DNA from: a phage
Reading direction: 5' to 3' (one strand)
Length of the DNA: 64,000 nucleotides
Assembly (NCBI GenBank): GCA_033648345.1
Contig: GCA_033648345.1_4121.1
Part shown: positions 7,131-32,240 of the stretch, in pieces
Position numbering within the stretch: the stretch's first letter is position 1
Layout of the letters: every line of letters starts with the position of its first letter
Translations under genes and position numbers: made by a program
The notes under the pieces: model-generated
Database searches by the model: none
Seen by the model: only the letters and a program-made list of their open reading frames with translations
Told to the model about the DNA's origin: nothing

Positions 7131-7136
7131 AAATAT

Positions 7137-7222
<86 letters not shown>

Positions 7223-7239
7223 CAATTAAAGGTTAAACC

Positions 7240-7400
<161 letters not shown>

Positions 7401-7404
<4 letters not shown>

Positions 7405-7561
7405 CACATGAAGAATGGATGAATGACATTAATTTTAGATATTCGGGTATCGGTAAATGGCTAAAGTATCATTGGGAATTCATTTCAGAGCCACATCTGT
7501 ATGATAAACTTATCAACGATCCAGCATATGAAATGTACTTAATTGAACTACTGGTACGAAT

Positions 7562-7565
<4 letters not shown>
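7401..7565 (+). CDS. MTHEEW-family small protein, tandem copy 2
   Basis: ATGA start/stop overlap with copy 1; same length. Confidence 0.45.
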
Positions 7566-7733
<168 letters not shown>

Positions 7734-7734
7734 G

Positions 7735-8188
<454 letters not shown>

Positions 8189-22612: not shown

Positions 22613-23110
22613 ATGACGACTGTTTATATTGATAAACGCTTGGGAGTATTACTTACTGATTCAAAAGTGACATCAACTGAGCAACGTTCATTTTTGAACC
22701 TATTCCCGTTGAAACCAAAACTTAGTTATGGTGTAGTTTCACAAAAAACATTGTATGTACACGACCGACTGTTTAGTGCTTGCGGTGAAGTTAGTGAAAT
22801 TAACAAAGTACTGAGATACTTGATTTCACAAGAGACTGTGATACCAGACCGCAAGGCGAGTTGTCACTGTGTTCTTGTGTCAAAAGATTACATCATTCAC
22901 TTAATCGTTAATAAGGGTAAGTTTACCAAGAAGATTGATTATCTCCATAATGATTATACATTCTTTATGGGTAGTGGTGGTGAATACATGCTTGATGCAG
23001 CAGTACATGAAGAGTATAATACTCTTCTTGATAAGGTATTTGATACCTTCATGGATGTTCATAACCATGATATCTATACCGATGATAATATTAATGTATA
23101 CCGTTTTTGA
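22613..23110 (+). CDS. hypothetical protein
   Basis: ORF in track. Confidence 0.5.
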   Translation: MTTVYIDKRLGVLLTDSKVTSTEQRSFLNLFPLKPKLSYGVVSQKTLYVHDRLFSACGEVSEINKVLRYLISQETVIPDRKASCHCVLVSKDYIIHLIVNKGKFTKKIDYLHNDYTFFMGSGGEYMLDAAVHEEYNTLLDKVFDTFMDVHNHDIYTDDNINVYRF

Positions 23111-23132: not shown

Positions 23133-24101
23133 GTGAAAAAGCTTGATTTAAATGCAATTTCTGAAGAAGTACTGGATGAGTGTTTTGCTAGTGAAGAAGT
23201 CAACGTATTAGAGGCTCTTGATTCCGTCGAAGAAGAAGAAGAACATGACGGTCACAAGTTTGAGAAACCAAAAACAGGTATCAGCTTAACTCGCCCTAAA
23301 GGGATAACGAATGAAATGCTCATCCAAGCAGTGCGTGATGGTATTGACGTTGAAAAGAACATTGACCTTTTGGTTCGCTACAACTATCCAATGGTAGTAA
23401 GTGTTGCACGTAAGTGTACATGTTTTATCCCATTTGAAGATAAGATTTCTTATGGTGTTGAAGGTTTAATGCGAGCAATTCATACGTTCGACACTACCAA
23501 AAATGTTAAGTTCATTACATATGCAACAACAACTGTGTACATGACAATCTATAACGAAAGTGCAGATGCTAATTATCTAGTGCATTTCCCACGTTATATG
23601 AGTGTTAATAACATTTATGTGAAACGTTGTGTAGAAGAGTATCAAAGGAAACATGGTAAATACCCAACTCCTGAGATGGTGTCAAAAGAGACTGGTATTG
23701 AGATTCAACACGTTAAGAATTGTCTAACTTACAATAACACTTATGTAGCATTGAATATGAAAATGAGTAATGATTCAGAAAGTACATTATCTGACATTGT
23801 TACTTCAGTTGAACCTGATTACAACTTAGGCGTAGAAACTGTCAGTACCCCACTGGTACAAAGTATTGCAGAAATGATGAGTAACCTATCTGCCAAAGAC
23901 CGTGAATTGATTGAACGTGTACATGGTATTGGTTCTTATTCTGAACCAGAAACGCTACGAGAAATCATTGAGAGTGGTTTTGAAGATGAGAAGGGTAAGG
24001 TCATGACTGCTCGTTCTTCATTGCACCGTAAGTACTCTGAAGCAATGGAACGACTGCGTAAGATGGTTAAGACAAAAGGTTATGAGTTCGAAGATTTTTA
24101 A
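23133..24101 (+). CDS. sigma-70 family RNA polymerase sigma factor (322 aa)
   Basis: region-2-like MVVSVARK...YGVEGLMRAIHTFD...KFITYATTTVYMTI and region-4-like LSAKDRELIERVHGIGS...ETLREII; recognised from motifs only. Confidence 0.7.
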   Translation: MKKLDLNAISEEVLDECFASEEVNVLEALDSVEEEEEHDGHKFEKPKTGISLTRPKGITNEMLIQAVRDGIDVEKNIDLLVRYNYPMVVSVARKCTCFIPFEDKISYGVEGLMRAIHTFDTTKNVKFITYATTTVYMTIYNESADANYLVHFPRYMSVNNIYVKRCVEEYQRKHGKYPTPEMVSKETGIEIQHVKNCLTYNNTYVALNMKMSNDSESTLSDIVTSVEPDYNLGVETVSTPLVQSIAEMMSNLSAKDRELIERVHGIGSYSEPETLREIIESGFEDEKGKVMTARSSLHRKYSEAMERLRKMVKTKGYEFEDF

Positions 24102-24107
24102 GATTAA

Positions 24108-24135
24108 AGGGTTGACTTCGGTCAGCCTTTTTTTT
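24108..24135 (+). terminator. PeSL-like stem-loop plus T8 (terminator; -10 degenerate in this copy)
   Basis: ggttgac-ttcg-gtcagcc hairpin followed by T8. Confidence 0.6.
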
Positions 24136-24136
24136 A

Positions 24137-24165
24137 TGGGACAAATTTATTAATGGTGATACAAT
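24137..24165 (+). promoter_or_regulatory. putative promoter, TGGGACA-N17-(TG)ATACAAT variant
   Basis: tgggacaaatttattaatggtgatacaat; precedes ORF-free region. Confidence 0.45.
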
Positions 24166-24171
24166 GATCTA

Positions 24172-24660
24172 TGTACAATCACAATGACAGTACTGGTACT
24201 GACAATCTTCCCCTACTTCACTTGAAAATGTAAAGGATAGATGAGCTTTTCATTGTAGCGAACAGCAAAAGAAACCCGTTAGATGTGGGCATAGTTTGAA
24301 CCCCTCACGGCAATGCGGCTGTATAAAGAACCACGTTAGGATAGCTGGTGGTTCCTCGATAGACATATAAGGATAACACCTTACGAATTATCTAAGGGAG
24401 AGTTATCGAATTTTGTACAGGAAAGTTGCGTCCAAAATTTGAGTACTCACATTAAGTATTTGATTGCATAGATACTTAATGAAGATACACTATGTTTAAA
24501 AGTGTAGACCGTCATATGAAACTGAAGTAGAGAGAAACAGGATGACCCGCTTTCGCACTCGTTATGAGTAATCTTCAATGCAATAGCTCTGATACCATCA
24601 GCGTCAAATTTCCCTCCGTGCGGGGGGAAGAAAAATCCCTTCCTCAAATCCCGTCAATAT
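24172..24660 (+). ncRNA. candidate structured non-coding RNA (about 490 nt, function unknown)
   Basis: no plus-strand ORF of 60 aa or more in an otherwise ORF-dense region; locally GC-richer; multiple stems (e.g. gaaccac...gtggttc); bracketed by promoters. Confidence 0.35.
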
Positions 24661-24669
24661 TAAAAGTCC

Positions 24670-24698
24670 TTGACAGTTATGATTCATTCGCGTAGAAT
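24670..24698 (+). promoter_or_regulatory. sigma70-type promoter TTGACA-N17-TAGAAT
   Basis: ttgacagttatgattcattcgcgtagaat. Confidence 0.5.
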
Positions 24699-24762
24699 AC
24701 GTAGTATTAGAAGCGAACAGACATCTCGAAGAGATGGATGATTAACCATTGAGGAATATCTA

Positions 24763-24972
24763 ATGAATTCAGTAATCTTTTTAATTATTGCTCTTTCACC
24801 ACAATCTGGTGTACAAATCACCCCAATGAATTCAATGAATCAATGCATTGCAGTACGTGACAGTACGTATGAACAAGTAAACAGCGTTTCACTTAGAACA
24901 GTTGGTGAAGAATTAATGTGGTGTTACAATAGTAATACTAAAGAAAAACTAATTGTTGGACAAACAGAATGA
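24763..24972 (+). CDS. hypothetical small protein with N-terminal hydrophobic segment
   Basis: ORF in track after GAGGAA. Confidence 0.4.
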   Translation: MNSVIFLIIALSPQSGVQITPMNSMNQCIAVRDSTYEQVNSVSLRTVGEELMWCYNSNTKEKLIVGQTE

Positions 24973-25196
24973 GTTATGGTGTTCGTTTTGAGATTCGTTC
25001 TATTGTTATCAATGACGAGAAACAAGCATCGTTGGATGGCGATATACGAGAACTATATCTATCATGTATCCGTGCAAAATCTGAAGCAGATGCATTATCA
25101 CAAATGATTGGTTTTAATTTCTTTCATGGATACTATTTGGTACGAGTTATCGAAGTTAAAAAAGTCACTTTTGAGTGTCTTGCTGGAGAAATATAA
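24969..25196 (+). CDS. hypothetical small protein
   Basis: ORF in track, coupled. Confidence 0.4.
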   Translation: MSYGVRFEIRSIVINDEKQASLDGDIRELYLSCIRAKSEADALSQMIGFNFFHGYYLVRVIEVKKVTFECLAGEI

Positions 25197-25197
25197 A

Positions 25198-25992
25198 ATG
25201 AGCACTATAGATGAATTGATTCGCCGGAATTCAAAATACTACGACCCATCAGAAATTGTCGGCAACATTACTAAATCTGAGTTCGGACCAAATACTCGAA
25301 AACTCATTCATGTAATGTCACGTGATGGCTTTAAATGTGATTGTTGTGGTGAATCCAATGTGGTATTCACTTTACATAAGCACAGTACTAAAGACCGTTA
25401 TAAATTCAGACCTTATGTACTTAAATGGAAACGCCTTGTACGCATGACGTTAGACCATAATGTACTGGACTGTCTTCAGGGCGGTAATGATAAAGAGAAC
25501 ATGACTGCATTGTGTGAGGATTGTAACGCATTACGCCAGCATAAGTTTGCTGAGTACAGTGAGTTTAAGCACTGGTATCATAACGCTGATCGTTCTATCG
25601 AGCCTGACGTTAACTACTGCTTCATTGAGTATATTAAGAATGCTAAAGATACATACATTCTTAAATCAATGTCACCTATTACAGTGTTCCCTGAGAATCT
25701 ATTCAGTACTATGCAGCGTGATTTTAAACGTGGTATCATTAATGCATTCAAACATTTAGACAAAGGTATCAAGCACTTTGAGGTGCAATGCTTAAATGAA
25801 GGAATGAATCGTTTAGTACAAATTTACATGAAATCATTTATAGGTGTTGACACCGCACGTCTACCAGTATATAATTACTTTATTGAAAGCGAAGAAGGTG
25901 AATCTCTTCGTGATTATGGTGAAAGATTTAATAACAAAGTCTTCGCTGCAATATCAAACGAGATTCATTACTATAAACCATATGTAATTTAA
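25198..25992 (+). CDS. HNH-motif nuclease domain protein
   Basis: track ORF 25108-25992 trimmed to ATG 25198; CDCCGE...HKHS...LDHNVLDCLQGGNDKENMTALCEDCNALRQH resembles a Cys-flanked HNH motif. Confidence 0.6.
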   Translation: MSTIDELIRRNSKYYDPSEIVGNITKSEFGPNTRKLIHVMSRDGFKCDCCGESNVVFTLHKHSTKDRYKFRPYVLKWKRLVRMTLDHNVLDCLQGGNDKENMTALCEDCNALRQHKFAEYSEFKHWYHNADRSIEPDVNYCFIEYIKNAKDTYILKSMSPITVFPENLFSTMQRDFKRGIINAFKHLDKGIKHFEVQCLNEGMNRLVQIYMKSFIGVDTARLPVYNYFIESEEGESLRDYGERFNNKVFAAISNEIHYYKPYVI

Positions 25993-32048: not shown

Positions 32049-32240
32049 ATGTTGATTTACCAATGTGATAACATTCGTGTTATGCAGCATCCCTACTTAC
32101 AAATCTTTGATGTGCAGCAGTATATGGAAGGTGATGACCCAAGAACCTATGGTCGTAAGTATGATTACTTCACTGTAAAGCAGTGTCATAACATCAAAGA
32201 AGTACGACAATTAGTTCAAGAACTTCAAAATAAAGGTTGA
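32049..32240 (+). CDS. hypothetical small protein
   Basis: track ORF trimmed to ATG 32049. Confidence 0.4.
   Translation: MLIYQCDNIRVMQHPYLQIFDVQQYMEGDDPRTYGRKYDYFTVKQCHNIKEVRQLVQELQNKG

Follow-up and report, generated by a model that had tools for sequence, protein, structure and literature searches.

The DNA analysed here is a stretch of 64,000 nucleotides (nt) from a phage (GenBank assembly GCA_033648345.1, contig GCA_033648345.1_4121.1), referred to below as the window. It derives from a 121Q/PBECO4-like jumbo phage of Escherichia coli (Asteriusvirus, Rak2-like), and the region under study is 99.9% identical to phages Ecwhy_1 and EC.P1. Downstream of a sigma-factor gene lies a segment poor in open reading frames (ORFs), in which positions 24173-24667 very probably constitute a stand-alone gene of ~490 nt for a functional structured RNA, one member of a family. 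Comparison of the sequences of this family has shown an autonomous promoter-RNA cassette, the predicted product of which is under selection for a complex, pseudoknotted fold that has an invariant core.

Organization of the locus

A gene of the sigma-70 family (23133-24101; Pfam Sigma70_r2/r3) is located directly upstream, and its stop codon is followed by a terminator. The elements that delimit the cassette are the following.

24106-24131, plus strand: intrinsic terminator (hairpin and T-run) ending the sigma-factor gene; it lies outside the RNA, just 5' of the cassette
24138-24166, plus strand: promoter of the RNA gene (TGGGACA, 17-nt spacer, extended -10 element TGaTACAAT)
24173-24667, plus strand: predicted RNA gene of ~495 nt, with the 5' end placed from the -10 element and the 3' end from the limit of family conservation
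24670-24698, plus strand: downstream promoter of sigma-70 type (TTGACA-17-TAGAAT), which serves the next genes and overlaps a hairpin at 24687-24717

The first-pass annotation, made without database searches, had drawn attention to this place as an ORF-free, structured region. The gap extends over 24102-24762 (661 nt) without a plus-strand ORF of at least 60 amino acids (aa), the longest ORFs being 43 aa on the plus strand and 66 aa on the minus strand. The claim that the gap is unlike everywhere else in the window was slightly overstated, as a plus-strand gap of 664 nt also occurs at 7131-7794, beside a tRNA-like element, and beyond ~47.8 kilobases (kb) the plus strand has many long gaps with no ORF of at least 60 aa, up to 4.8 kb. 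The individual signals that had been named were all recovered. The hairpin before the gap is a terminator of 11 pairs with a T-run (24106-24131), the promoter given as TGGGACA-N17-TACAAT at the 5' end of the segment is present in an equivalent layout (GGGACA-16-TACAAT with TG, 24138-24165), and the promoter reported at 24670 reads TTGACA-17-TAGAAT. The segment is also richer in GC, as had been stated: 24173-24667 has a GC content of 0.40, which places it at the 97th percentile among windows of 495 nt, and the window as a whole has 0.349. In annotated relatives, the same gap of ~650 nt has been left empty or filled with small 'hypothetical' ORFs.

A dispersed family of copies in jumbo phages

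The central ~460 nt of the segment are conserved at ~70% nucleotide identity across phage genera, with different flanking genes in each group. The groups include Mimasvirus (CBB, GAP32, XbC2), Eneladusvirus (BF, fHe-Yen9-04, and the pEa_SNUABM phages), Salmonella phages of the Munch/7t3 type, and others. An nhmmer profile of 494 positions, used in place of a covariance model, found 48 distinct copies of full length, which come from Asteriusvirus, Mimasvirus, Eneladusvirus, Munch-like phages, and metagenomes; they form 16 clusters at 80% identity, with a minimum identity of 56%. In the window the profile detects one copy only (24192-24665, E = 4e-114). Further paralogs inside the window had been suspected from BLAST matches in four places per record, and in-window blastn found short terminator-promoter repeats only.

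Strict scans with a pattern built from an invariant block, CGGCAATGCGGCNNTATAAA, matched two to three separate places per jumbo-phage genome, as well as 27 metagenome stretches and 2 bacterial genome records. At least four paralog lineages can be distinguished, and every Rak2-like jumbo phage examined carries several copies. In 121Q the second copy is found 102 kb away, inside another ORF-free gap of 610 nt; in fHe-Yen9-04 copies occur at ~24.7, 93.4, and 334.9 kb, and a fourth lineage (D) is located at ~174 kb in BF and fHe-Yen9-04 and at ~258 kb in CBB. Every annotated copy examined lies within an ORF-free gap. Since the lineages cluster by genomic position across genera and not by genome, the paralogs are old and separately maintained. 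A search of plasmids gave no match to the RNA.

The promoter accompanies the RNA through the family. The layout TGRRAY-N16-18-TAYAMT is present in 51 of 53 distinct upstream regions, 49 of these with an extended -10 element (TGn). Most lineages have TGAAAC as the -35 element; in the E. coli and Salmonella copies, and in related ones from metagenomes, it reads TGGGAC or TGGGAT. Because the extended -10 promoter is of the sigma-70 type, as judged from its letters alone, the RNA is presumably transcribed by the bacterial RNA polymerase. In the genome paper on CBB, a non-canonical TGAAACG promoter class was described, of which 11 of 18 members precede a region where DNA-synthesis genes are numerous (PMC5259590). 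The placement of this class suggests that the RNA would be expressed alongside the DNA-synthesis genes.

No conserved protein partner was recognized among the neighbours of the copies: the sigma factor is found in the 121Q group only, and the other neighbours are unrelated hypothetical proteins. Lineage D (BF, Munch) has the RNA in antiparallel orientation, flanked by an EndoVII-like gene and by baseplate genes, and a bidirectional terminator follows ~130-170 nt downstream. These contexts bear on a reading of the segment as a cis-regulatory leader, either riboswitch-like or a processive antitermination element, that would govern the downstream genes. Such a leader would agree with the position of the RNA just after a promoter, with its place upstream of co-oriented genes in lineages A-C, and with the terminator-like hairpins of some copies, which would require read-through. 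The reading is nevertheless most improbable, as each copy is followed by different, unrelated genes, which are served by a separate promoter, all neighbours of lineage D and of the Munch copy are antiparallel, and copies in chromosomal islands precede unrelated DNA. The first-pass annotation had offered a large non-coding RNA or a structured leader. The large RNA has stood, by its conservation, its own promoter, its covariation, the lack of a conserved ORF, and the lack of an Rfam match; the leader has been given up on account of the differing downstream genes, the separate promoter of the next genes, and the antiparallel lineage D with a terminator of its own.

Downstream of the RNA, the phage copies that were read contain a hairpin whose loop is of the ACGNAG/GAAGYG type, as well as a TTGAC element with GAAAAUYC before it. 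These elements were seen at 24663-24717 of the window, ~60-110 nt after the RNA in copies L004, L005, and L008, and at 3040-3120 in L073 and L074; their order in the window copy differs from that in the other phage copies. The three island copies (L068, L069, and L072) have the downstream hairpin motif without the TTGAC element. The hairpin and the TTGAC element may represent a processing site or a part of the cassette.

Structure and covariation of the RNA

The structure was derived from an alignment (A2) of 41 sequences below 97% identity, made with MAFFT. It places 105 pairs in 17 helices, arranged in three domains with two pseudoknots (PK1 and PK2). The elements are given below for the window copy.

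24181-24256, plus strand: 5' domain, with helix P1 (24181-24187 with 24250-24256); 8 of 8 P1 pairs changed on both sides, 92.9% of cells paired
~24188-24201, plus strand: variable hairpin P1a, inside P1
24216-24222 with 24233-24238, plus strand: P1b with a conserved GAAAAUGUA loop, inside P1
24240-24245, plus strand: GAUGAG motif, near-invariant, third base A or U, inside P1
24262-24322, plus strand: junction domain, with P2 (24262-24266 with 24318-24322), 100% paired, with GC/CG and AU/UA swaps
Inside P2, plus strand: A-rich strand AAAAGAAAC; P3 (24276-24279 with 24307-24310); P3a and P3b, capped by the conserved loop CAUAGUUUGAA
24308-24319, plus strand: CGGCAAUGCGGC, near-invariant (10 of 12 bases invariant), in the junction domain
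24328-24354, plus strand: hairpin P4 (GAACCAC/GUGGUUC); 7 of 7 pairs changed on both sides, up to 4 pair types per position
24358-24368, plus strand: invariant strand GAUAGACAUAU
24368-24371 with 24380-24383, plus strand: hairpin P5
24393-24400, plus strand: nearly invariant strand UAAGGGAG
24409-24439, plus strand: hairpin P6 with the family-conserved loop consensus ACAAUAUAGAUCCGUCC; 80% of cells paired
24450-24481, plus strand: hairpin P7 of 13 base pairs, 12 of which covary
24464-24468 (P7 loop) with 24579-24583, plus strand: PK1; 5 of 5 pairs changed on both sides (UA/CG, GC/AU, AU/GC)
24486-24583, plus strand: 3' core, beginning with P8 (24486-24491 with 24501-24506), 100% paired, with compensatory changes
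24507-24512, plus strand: invariant GACCGU, in the 3' core
24511-24515 with 24542-24546, plus strand: PK2, 100% paired, with compensatory changes
24523-24577, plus strand: three-way junction of P9 (24523-24527 with 24573-24577), P10 (24530-24534 with 24550-24554), and P11 (24557-24560 with 24566-24569)
24545-24550, plus strand: invariant ACCCGC, in the 3' core
24599-24657, plus strand: 3' region, with the motif CAGCGUCAA (24599-24607) followed by the G/C hairpin P12 (24610-24617 with 24622-24629)
24645-24657, plus strand: conserved tail CAAAUCCCGUCAA

Standard pairs occupy 89.5% of the 3944 cells of this model, versus 74.2 +/- 0.4% in shuffled alignments and 37-46% when the partners are slid by one to three columns. 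Changes on both sides were found for 76 of the 105 pairs, and 614 double-change cells were observed versus 203 +/- 12 in the shuffles. None of 500 shuffles attained any of the observed measures. The covariation in related phages that the first-pass annotation had named as a check is borne out. Both pseudoknots are paired in 100% of cells and show compensatory swaps; PK1 joins the loop of P7 to a strand 115 nt downstream, and in PK2 a GUUGU strand pairs with ACAAC across P9 and P10. In the three-way junction P10 is 100% paired and P9 98.5%, both with compensatory changes. An independent prediction by RNAalifold recovered P1-P5 and P7-P12 (11 helices), P1 of the 5' domain among them, with compensatory changes in 41 of its 62 predicted pairs.

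Two complementary stretches had been pointed out in the segment before any alignment was available. The first (gaaccac/gtggttc) is hairpin P4, 24328-24334 with 24348-24354, with compensatory changes in relatives; the second (ccctccg/cgggggg) is hairpin P12, at ~24610-24617 with 24622-24629, which varies almost solely from G-C to G-U. Across the model, G-U and U-G pairs number 250 versus 29 A-C and C-A combinations. As G-U far exceeds A-C, selection acts on the plus-strand RNA and not on DNA hairpins or the opposite strand. When the single sequence was folded and compared with shuffled ones, z-scores of -2.3 for the plus strand and -2.1 for the minus strand were obtained. The case for structure beyond chance therefore rests on the comparative data and not on thermodynamics, as the folding energy only modestly beats the shuffles.

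The alignment has 82 invariant columns, concentrated in junctions and single strands. The conserved blocks are GAUGAG (near-invariant), GAAACCCG, CGGCAAUGCGGC (near-invariant), UAUAAA, GAUAGACAUAU, GACCGU, and ACCCGC. A possible long-range pairing of GAC (24362-24364) with GUC (24653-24655) was predicted by RNAalifold; covariation is mute on it because both sides are invariant. In a reading of the alignment, two CGUCAR motifs tend to switch between A and G together across copies. An alternative hairpin in place of P5, CCUUA/UAAGG, was excluded by the sequences of pEa49 and L041.

Outside this core the RNA is variable. P1a and the loop of P4 vary freely between copies, and P6 behaves as a movable module, which can be found at other insertion points, duplicated, or absent (A2 columns 348-379 and 512-545). 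It lies inside P11 in L041, L031, and L036 and occurs twice in L042/L069 and L072; in L026, L066, L032, and L044 it is missing at the usual site and a divergent copy of the module is found inside P11. One lineage is without P7 and PK1. Six copies (L009, L019, L026, L032, L044, and L066) carry a terminator-like hairpin followed by six to seven U inside the RNA, just before P12 (A2 columns 597-633), and the L014-L030 group has a terminator-like hairpin with a U-run within ~30 nt of the predicted start site.

Relation to known RNA classes and to small proteins

The whole window was searched with the 4227 covariance models of Rfam 15, which include GOLLD, ROOL, HEARO, OLE, raiA, RNase P, transfer-messenger RNA (tmRNA), group I and group II introns, and riboswitches. 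At gathering scores only three tRNAs were found, all of them elsewhere in the window. At E <= 10, the window copy and an island copy gave scattered matches of 13-19 bits to unrelated families, none of them shared, and the CBB copy gave none. The inability to assign a family, noted from the outset, is thus confirmed with three diverged variants, which gave no consistent match. ARAGORN found no tRNA or tmRNA gene in 23800-25000.

A small protein was considered and rejected: among 41 homologs, only 4 keep the window ORF of 66 aa intact, 6 that of 43 aa, and 4 that of 38 aa. In readings of the alignment, a tiny ORF after a Shine-Dalgarno-like AAGGGAG was not conserved, and an AUG in GGGGGGAUGAAA, considered as a start codon, does not occur in the window copy, and in other copies stop codons come soon after it.

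A group I intron inserted in a gene can be discarded as well. No gene is interrupted, as the sigma-factor ORF stops at 24101 and is followed by its terminator; the RNA has its own promoter, the flanks differ between copies, and Intron_gpI gave no match. In our own comparison, PK1 (loop to strand) and PK2 (H-type) do not map onto P3 and P7 of group I introns. There remains a wider proposal that the RNA belongs to a known ribozyme class from which it has diverged strongly, for instance as a group I-like ribozyme standing alone or as an RNA akin to that of RNase P. Its appeal lies in two motif resemblances, which find no support from covariance models. The series GAUAGAC, hairpin, and AUAUAGAUCCGUCC recalls P3'/P8/J8-7 of the T4 td intron, and AAUGCGG with CCGCUU, with a bulged U beside ACAGnA, recalls helix P4 and CR-V of RNase P. 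The RNase P models match none of the three variants at E <= 10, and the P4-like GCGG/CCGC pairing is uninformative because it is invariant and so beyond the reach of covariation. With no match of the three variants to Intron_gpI, RNase P, or any other Rfam ribozyme at the same threshold, no interrupted gene, and a helix order that in our comparison fits neither fold, this proposal is very doubtful.

Copies in chromosomal islands

Full-length copies of the RNA were also found in three unrelated chromosomal islands, with, as read from the sequences, the invariant core motifs intact and a promoter of the TGAAAC/TGGGAT type upstream. In the chromosome of Serratia fonticola GTA-SR07 (L069, NZ_CP183218, 1-5600) and in an equivalent metagenome contig (L042), the RNA-bearing island lies near tilS, and the RNA is found in an AT-rich, ORF-free stretch of ~1.2 kb beside two ParB/RepB-like genes and a large serine recombinase. 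One end of the Serratia island is flanked by two near-identical stretches of ~240 nt, read as rof-like. In an Enterobacteriaceae metagenome-assembled genome, the RNA adjoins thiamine-salvage kinase genes (Pfam HK, Phos_pyr_kin) and a CI-like repressor, and the surroundings contain at least one further promoter of the RNA-gene type. In E. coli LR-29-1 (L072, NZ_AP027515, 4845-15189), one of two matches among 5426 complete E. coli genomes, the RNA is carried by an island between ffs and ybaA that also contains the candidate defence system PDC-M45 (DuOB, DUF488, mSLOG/DUF4326) and a tyrosine integrase interrupted by IS3. Here ~1.4 kb of ORF-free DNA holds the RNA under a TGGGAT-N17-TGaTATAAT promoter. 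Against all phage records, 4.7 kb of this island gave matches in the RNA segment alone, the best of them at 80.6% identity to lineage D of Eneladusvirus. The neighbours of the RNA in the islands are unrelated to those in the phages, and no replication, packaging, or transfer genes could be recognized in the annotated parts of the islands.

Jumbo-phage satellites with an integrase and defence cargo and no transfer genes have recently been shown in Pseudomonas (PMC12595487, PMC12772148). A term search of one of these reports (PMC12595487) found no mention of a shared non-coding element.

The island copies, together with the dispersed phage copies, bring in the main alternative to a trans-acting RNA, namely that the cassette is a cis-acting replication origin or mobilisation RNA. 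The folded transcript would prime leading-strand synthesis by a T4-like replisome, the conserved 3' tail staying on the template as an R-loop, or being processed there, before it primes; islands would be replicated by an infecting jumbo phage and packaged by the headful, becoming its satellites. T4 has several origins, of which oriF and oriG give MotA-dependent transcripts from middle promoters, and ColE1 RNA II provides a further precedent. Kreuzer and Alberts reportedly found that T4 replicates and transduces plasmids on which one of its origins has been placed. Several dispersed copies of the cassette occupy corresponding positions across genera, and lineage D is a lone unit within a late-gene region, like the T4 oriG promoter. 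The conserved 3' tail has no covarying partner. Three islands that are unrelated (one with a serine recombinase, one with an IS3-split tyrosine integrase and candidate defence genes, and one with a CI-like repressor) carry the cassette, and the E. coli island shares the RNA segment alone with phages. No replication or packaging genes were recognized in the annotated parts of the islands. The promoter belongs to the non-canonical TGAAACG class that in CBB is mostly found upstream of DNA-synthesis genes (PMC5259590), which parallels the promoters of T4 oriF and oriG. Satellites made of an integrase and defence cargo have been demonstrated for jumbo phages (PMC12595487, PMC12772148).

An origin is nonetheless somewhat unlikely. 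Selection on folding spans nearly the whole RNA, beyond the apparent needs of priming, and the cumulative GC skew has no inflection at the locus. T4-type origins need a promoter and an unwinding element only, and we know of no phage origin that requires a pseudoknotted RNA of 490 nt with ~80 invariant nucleotides. Islands of this kind are seldom met with, in E. coli in 2 of 5426 genomes, and they could have acquired the cassette by chance.

The same distribution might be produced by a selfish mobile RNA cassette, possibly a ribozyme, spreading between intergenic sites of phages and islands through recombination at terminator-promoter cassettes or through neighbouring homing endonucleases. The unit, promoter included, does occur in many flanking contexts and in three unrelated islands; endonuclease-like genes of the HNH or DUF723/treble-clef type are near it in some contexts (25108-25992 in the window; Munch gp274), and terminator-promoter cassettes are repeated in the window. 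Old paralog lineages at corresponding positions across genera are unlike recent transposition, and no reverse transcriptase or transposase is consistently adjacent, so a selfish cassette is considered improbable.

A possible trans-acting RNA machine

The reading preferred here is an RNA machine: once folded, the RNA would act in trans in the course of infection. The reading is a plausible one, held with slightly less than even confidence. It is proposed because the junctions form an invariant core and the peripheral elements vary and move, a combination also seen in RNase P RNA and group I introns. The RNA would be a ribozyme, or the RNA core of a ribonucleoprotein or of an RNA-only assembly, and the invariant junction nucleotides would form its binding or catalytic core. 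Paralogs would have this core in common, while their differing peripheries would tune partners or specificity; a shared core with differing periphery does suggest specialisation. The cassettes borne by islands would exploit the activity of the RNA, or interfere with it, during jumbo-phage infection. Large RNAs with complex conserved folds are rare, and almost all of those understood so far have proved to be ribozymes, cores of ribonucleoproteins, or RNA assemblies that nobody had expected.

Several observations weigh against a trans-acting machine. Taken singly, the sequence folds with only modest stability (z = -2.3), and no neighbouring gene conserved among the copies points to a ribonucleoprotein. 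The internal and early terminator-like hairpins demand either read-through or alternative ends of the RNA, and a simple stable-RNA model fails for the copies that have them. An RNA acting in trans does not obviously explain why diverged copies are dispersed at conserved positions, why unrelated islands with integrases carry it, or why, in the one island compared, it is the sole segment shared with phages. All three observations fit a cis-acting replication or mobilisation element better.

No published description of the RNA was found in the literature, and the GenBank records inspected contain no RNA annotation for it; a catalogue of viral structured RNAs with 10,006 candidates (PMC10690425) may hold fragments of it. 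The RNA is therefore taken to represent a new class. More specifically, and tentatively, it could be a new class of large pseudoknotted RNA with a complexity like that of RNase P or group I introns, providing phages with a catalytic or self-assembling core or with an origin determinant, and used by islands as well. If so, a single RNA cassette would define the biology of jumbo phages and of their satellites, through hitch-hiking or interference by enterobacterial islands. Acting in cis, it would explain the mobilisation of islands by jumbo phages, a question left open by recent work on satellites; acting in trans, it would be a sign of a new kind of conflict based on RNA. The present analysis goes beyond the first-pass annotation in describing an RNA family that spans genera, has multiple copies and two pseudoknots, and occurs in chromosomal islands too. 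The system is tractable, as the RNA is present in coliphages that can be grown, and its defined promoter and two covarying pseudoknots allow direct study in E. coli.

Additional features of the window

Upstream of the sigma-factor gene, 22613-23110 encodes an HslV-like protease subunit, according to the annotation of the relative fEgEco12. An HNH endonuclease, annotated in fEgEco12 and 121Q and missing from this place in phage A4, is encoded at 25108-25992, ~440 nt 3' of the RNA.

The junction of terminator hairpin with T-run (~30 nt) and TGGGACA has copies at 32232, 35820, 36483, 38558, 39242, 43605, 44149, and 44489. These eight copies are 90-96% identical, with one at 82%, and resemble the promoter-stem-loop cassettes (PeSL) of T4-type phages.

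The tRNA-like element mentioned above (7137-7215) scores 32.6 bits against the Rfam tRNA model and is not called by ARAGORN. It is found with 83-94% identity in many unrelated phages (Felixounavirus-like phages, coliphages of 140-150 kb, and Klebsiella phages), where it is annotated as 'tRNA-OTHER' in one record and is unannotated or covered by a protein ORF in others. It is followed by ~580 nt without ORFs (7216-7794), conserved in close relatives only.

Over the whole window, two palindromes are strongly over-represented: GTAC occurs 514 times versus 206 expected and AGTACT 175 times versus 22. GATC, CTAG, and TCGA are depleted about two-fold. GTAC is also locally abundant in the phage-like part of the E. 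coli island. The excess of GTAC and AGTACT is possibly a protein-binding site or a signal related to modification or restriction.

Comparison with known systems

The E. coli island resembles the I55-type satellites of jumbo phages (PMC12595487) in its tyrosine integrase, its candidate defence cargo, and the absence of recognized transfer genes in the annotated parts; the hosts, the integration sites, and the types of helper phage differ. Phage PA5oct, a relative of the Rak2-like group, has an ORF-free, abundantly transcribed non-coding RNA of similar size, ncRNA002 (451 nt; PMC7318152). Unclassified non-coding RNAs of PA5oct account for up to ~5% of phage reads in early and middle infection, as measured by RNA sequencing (PMC7318152). 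ncRNA002 was rejected as a homolog, because no homology is detectable and the family profile misses the PA5oct locus.

With the T4-like group I introns (td, nrdB, and sunY) the RNA shares a phage context, a pseudoknotted fold of similar size, and a few short motif resemblances. It differs from them in not lying within a gene, in having its own promoter, in lacking an Rfam match, and in a helix order unlike P1-P9.

GOLLD and ROOL, which are frequent in phages and prophages and form RNA-only multimers as seen by cryo-electron microscopy (PMC12286853), are likewise large, elaborately folded, associated with phages, and intergenic, with no fixed protein-coding partner. The covarying loop-to-strand pairing of PK1 could in principle be intermolecular. 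In contrast to these RNAs, the family described here has no Rfam match, its hosts are jumbo myoviruses of Enterobacterales and not Firmicutes or organisms of rumen and lake, and each genome contains several diverged paralogs, each with a dedicated phage-type promoter.

The likeness to the T4 oriF and oriG transcripts and to ColE1 RNA II is of another kind. It consists in a non-coding transcript that starts from a promoter and has, as predicted here, a length of ~0.5 kb like RNA II, in a non-canonical class of phage promoters tied to DNA-synthesis genes, and in several copies per genome; an element of this sort alone could render foreign DNA replicable and transducible. ColE1 RNA II is controlled by the antisense RNA I. 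A promoter scan of 23900-25000 gave only the two plus-strand promoters listed above, with no search aimed at an antisense promoter or an equivalent of RNA I. The T4 origins have no known conserved RNA fold, whereas pairing in the present RNA is under selection over nearly its whole length, including two pseudoknots. Among known systems, GOLLD and ROOL are the closest in kind, and the T4 oriF and oriG transcripts and ColE1 RNA II are the closest in possible mechanism.

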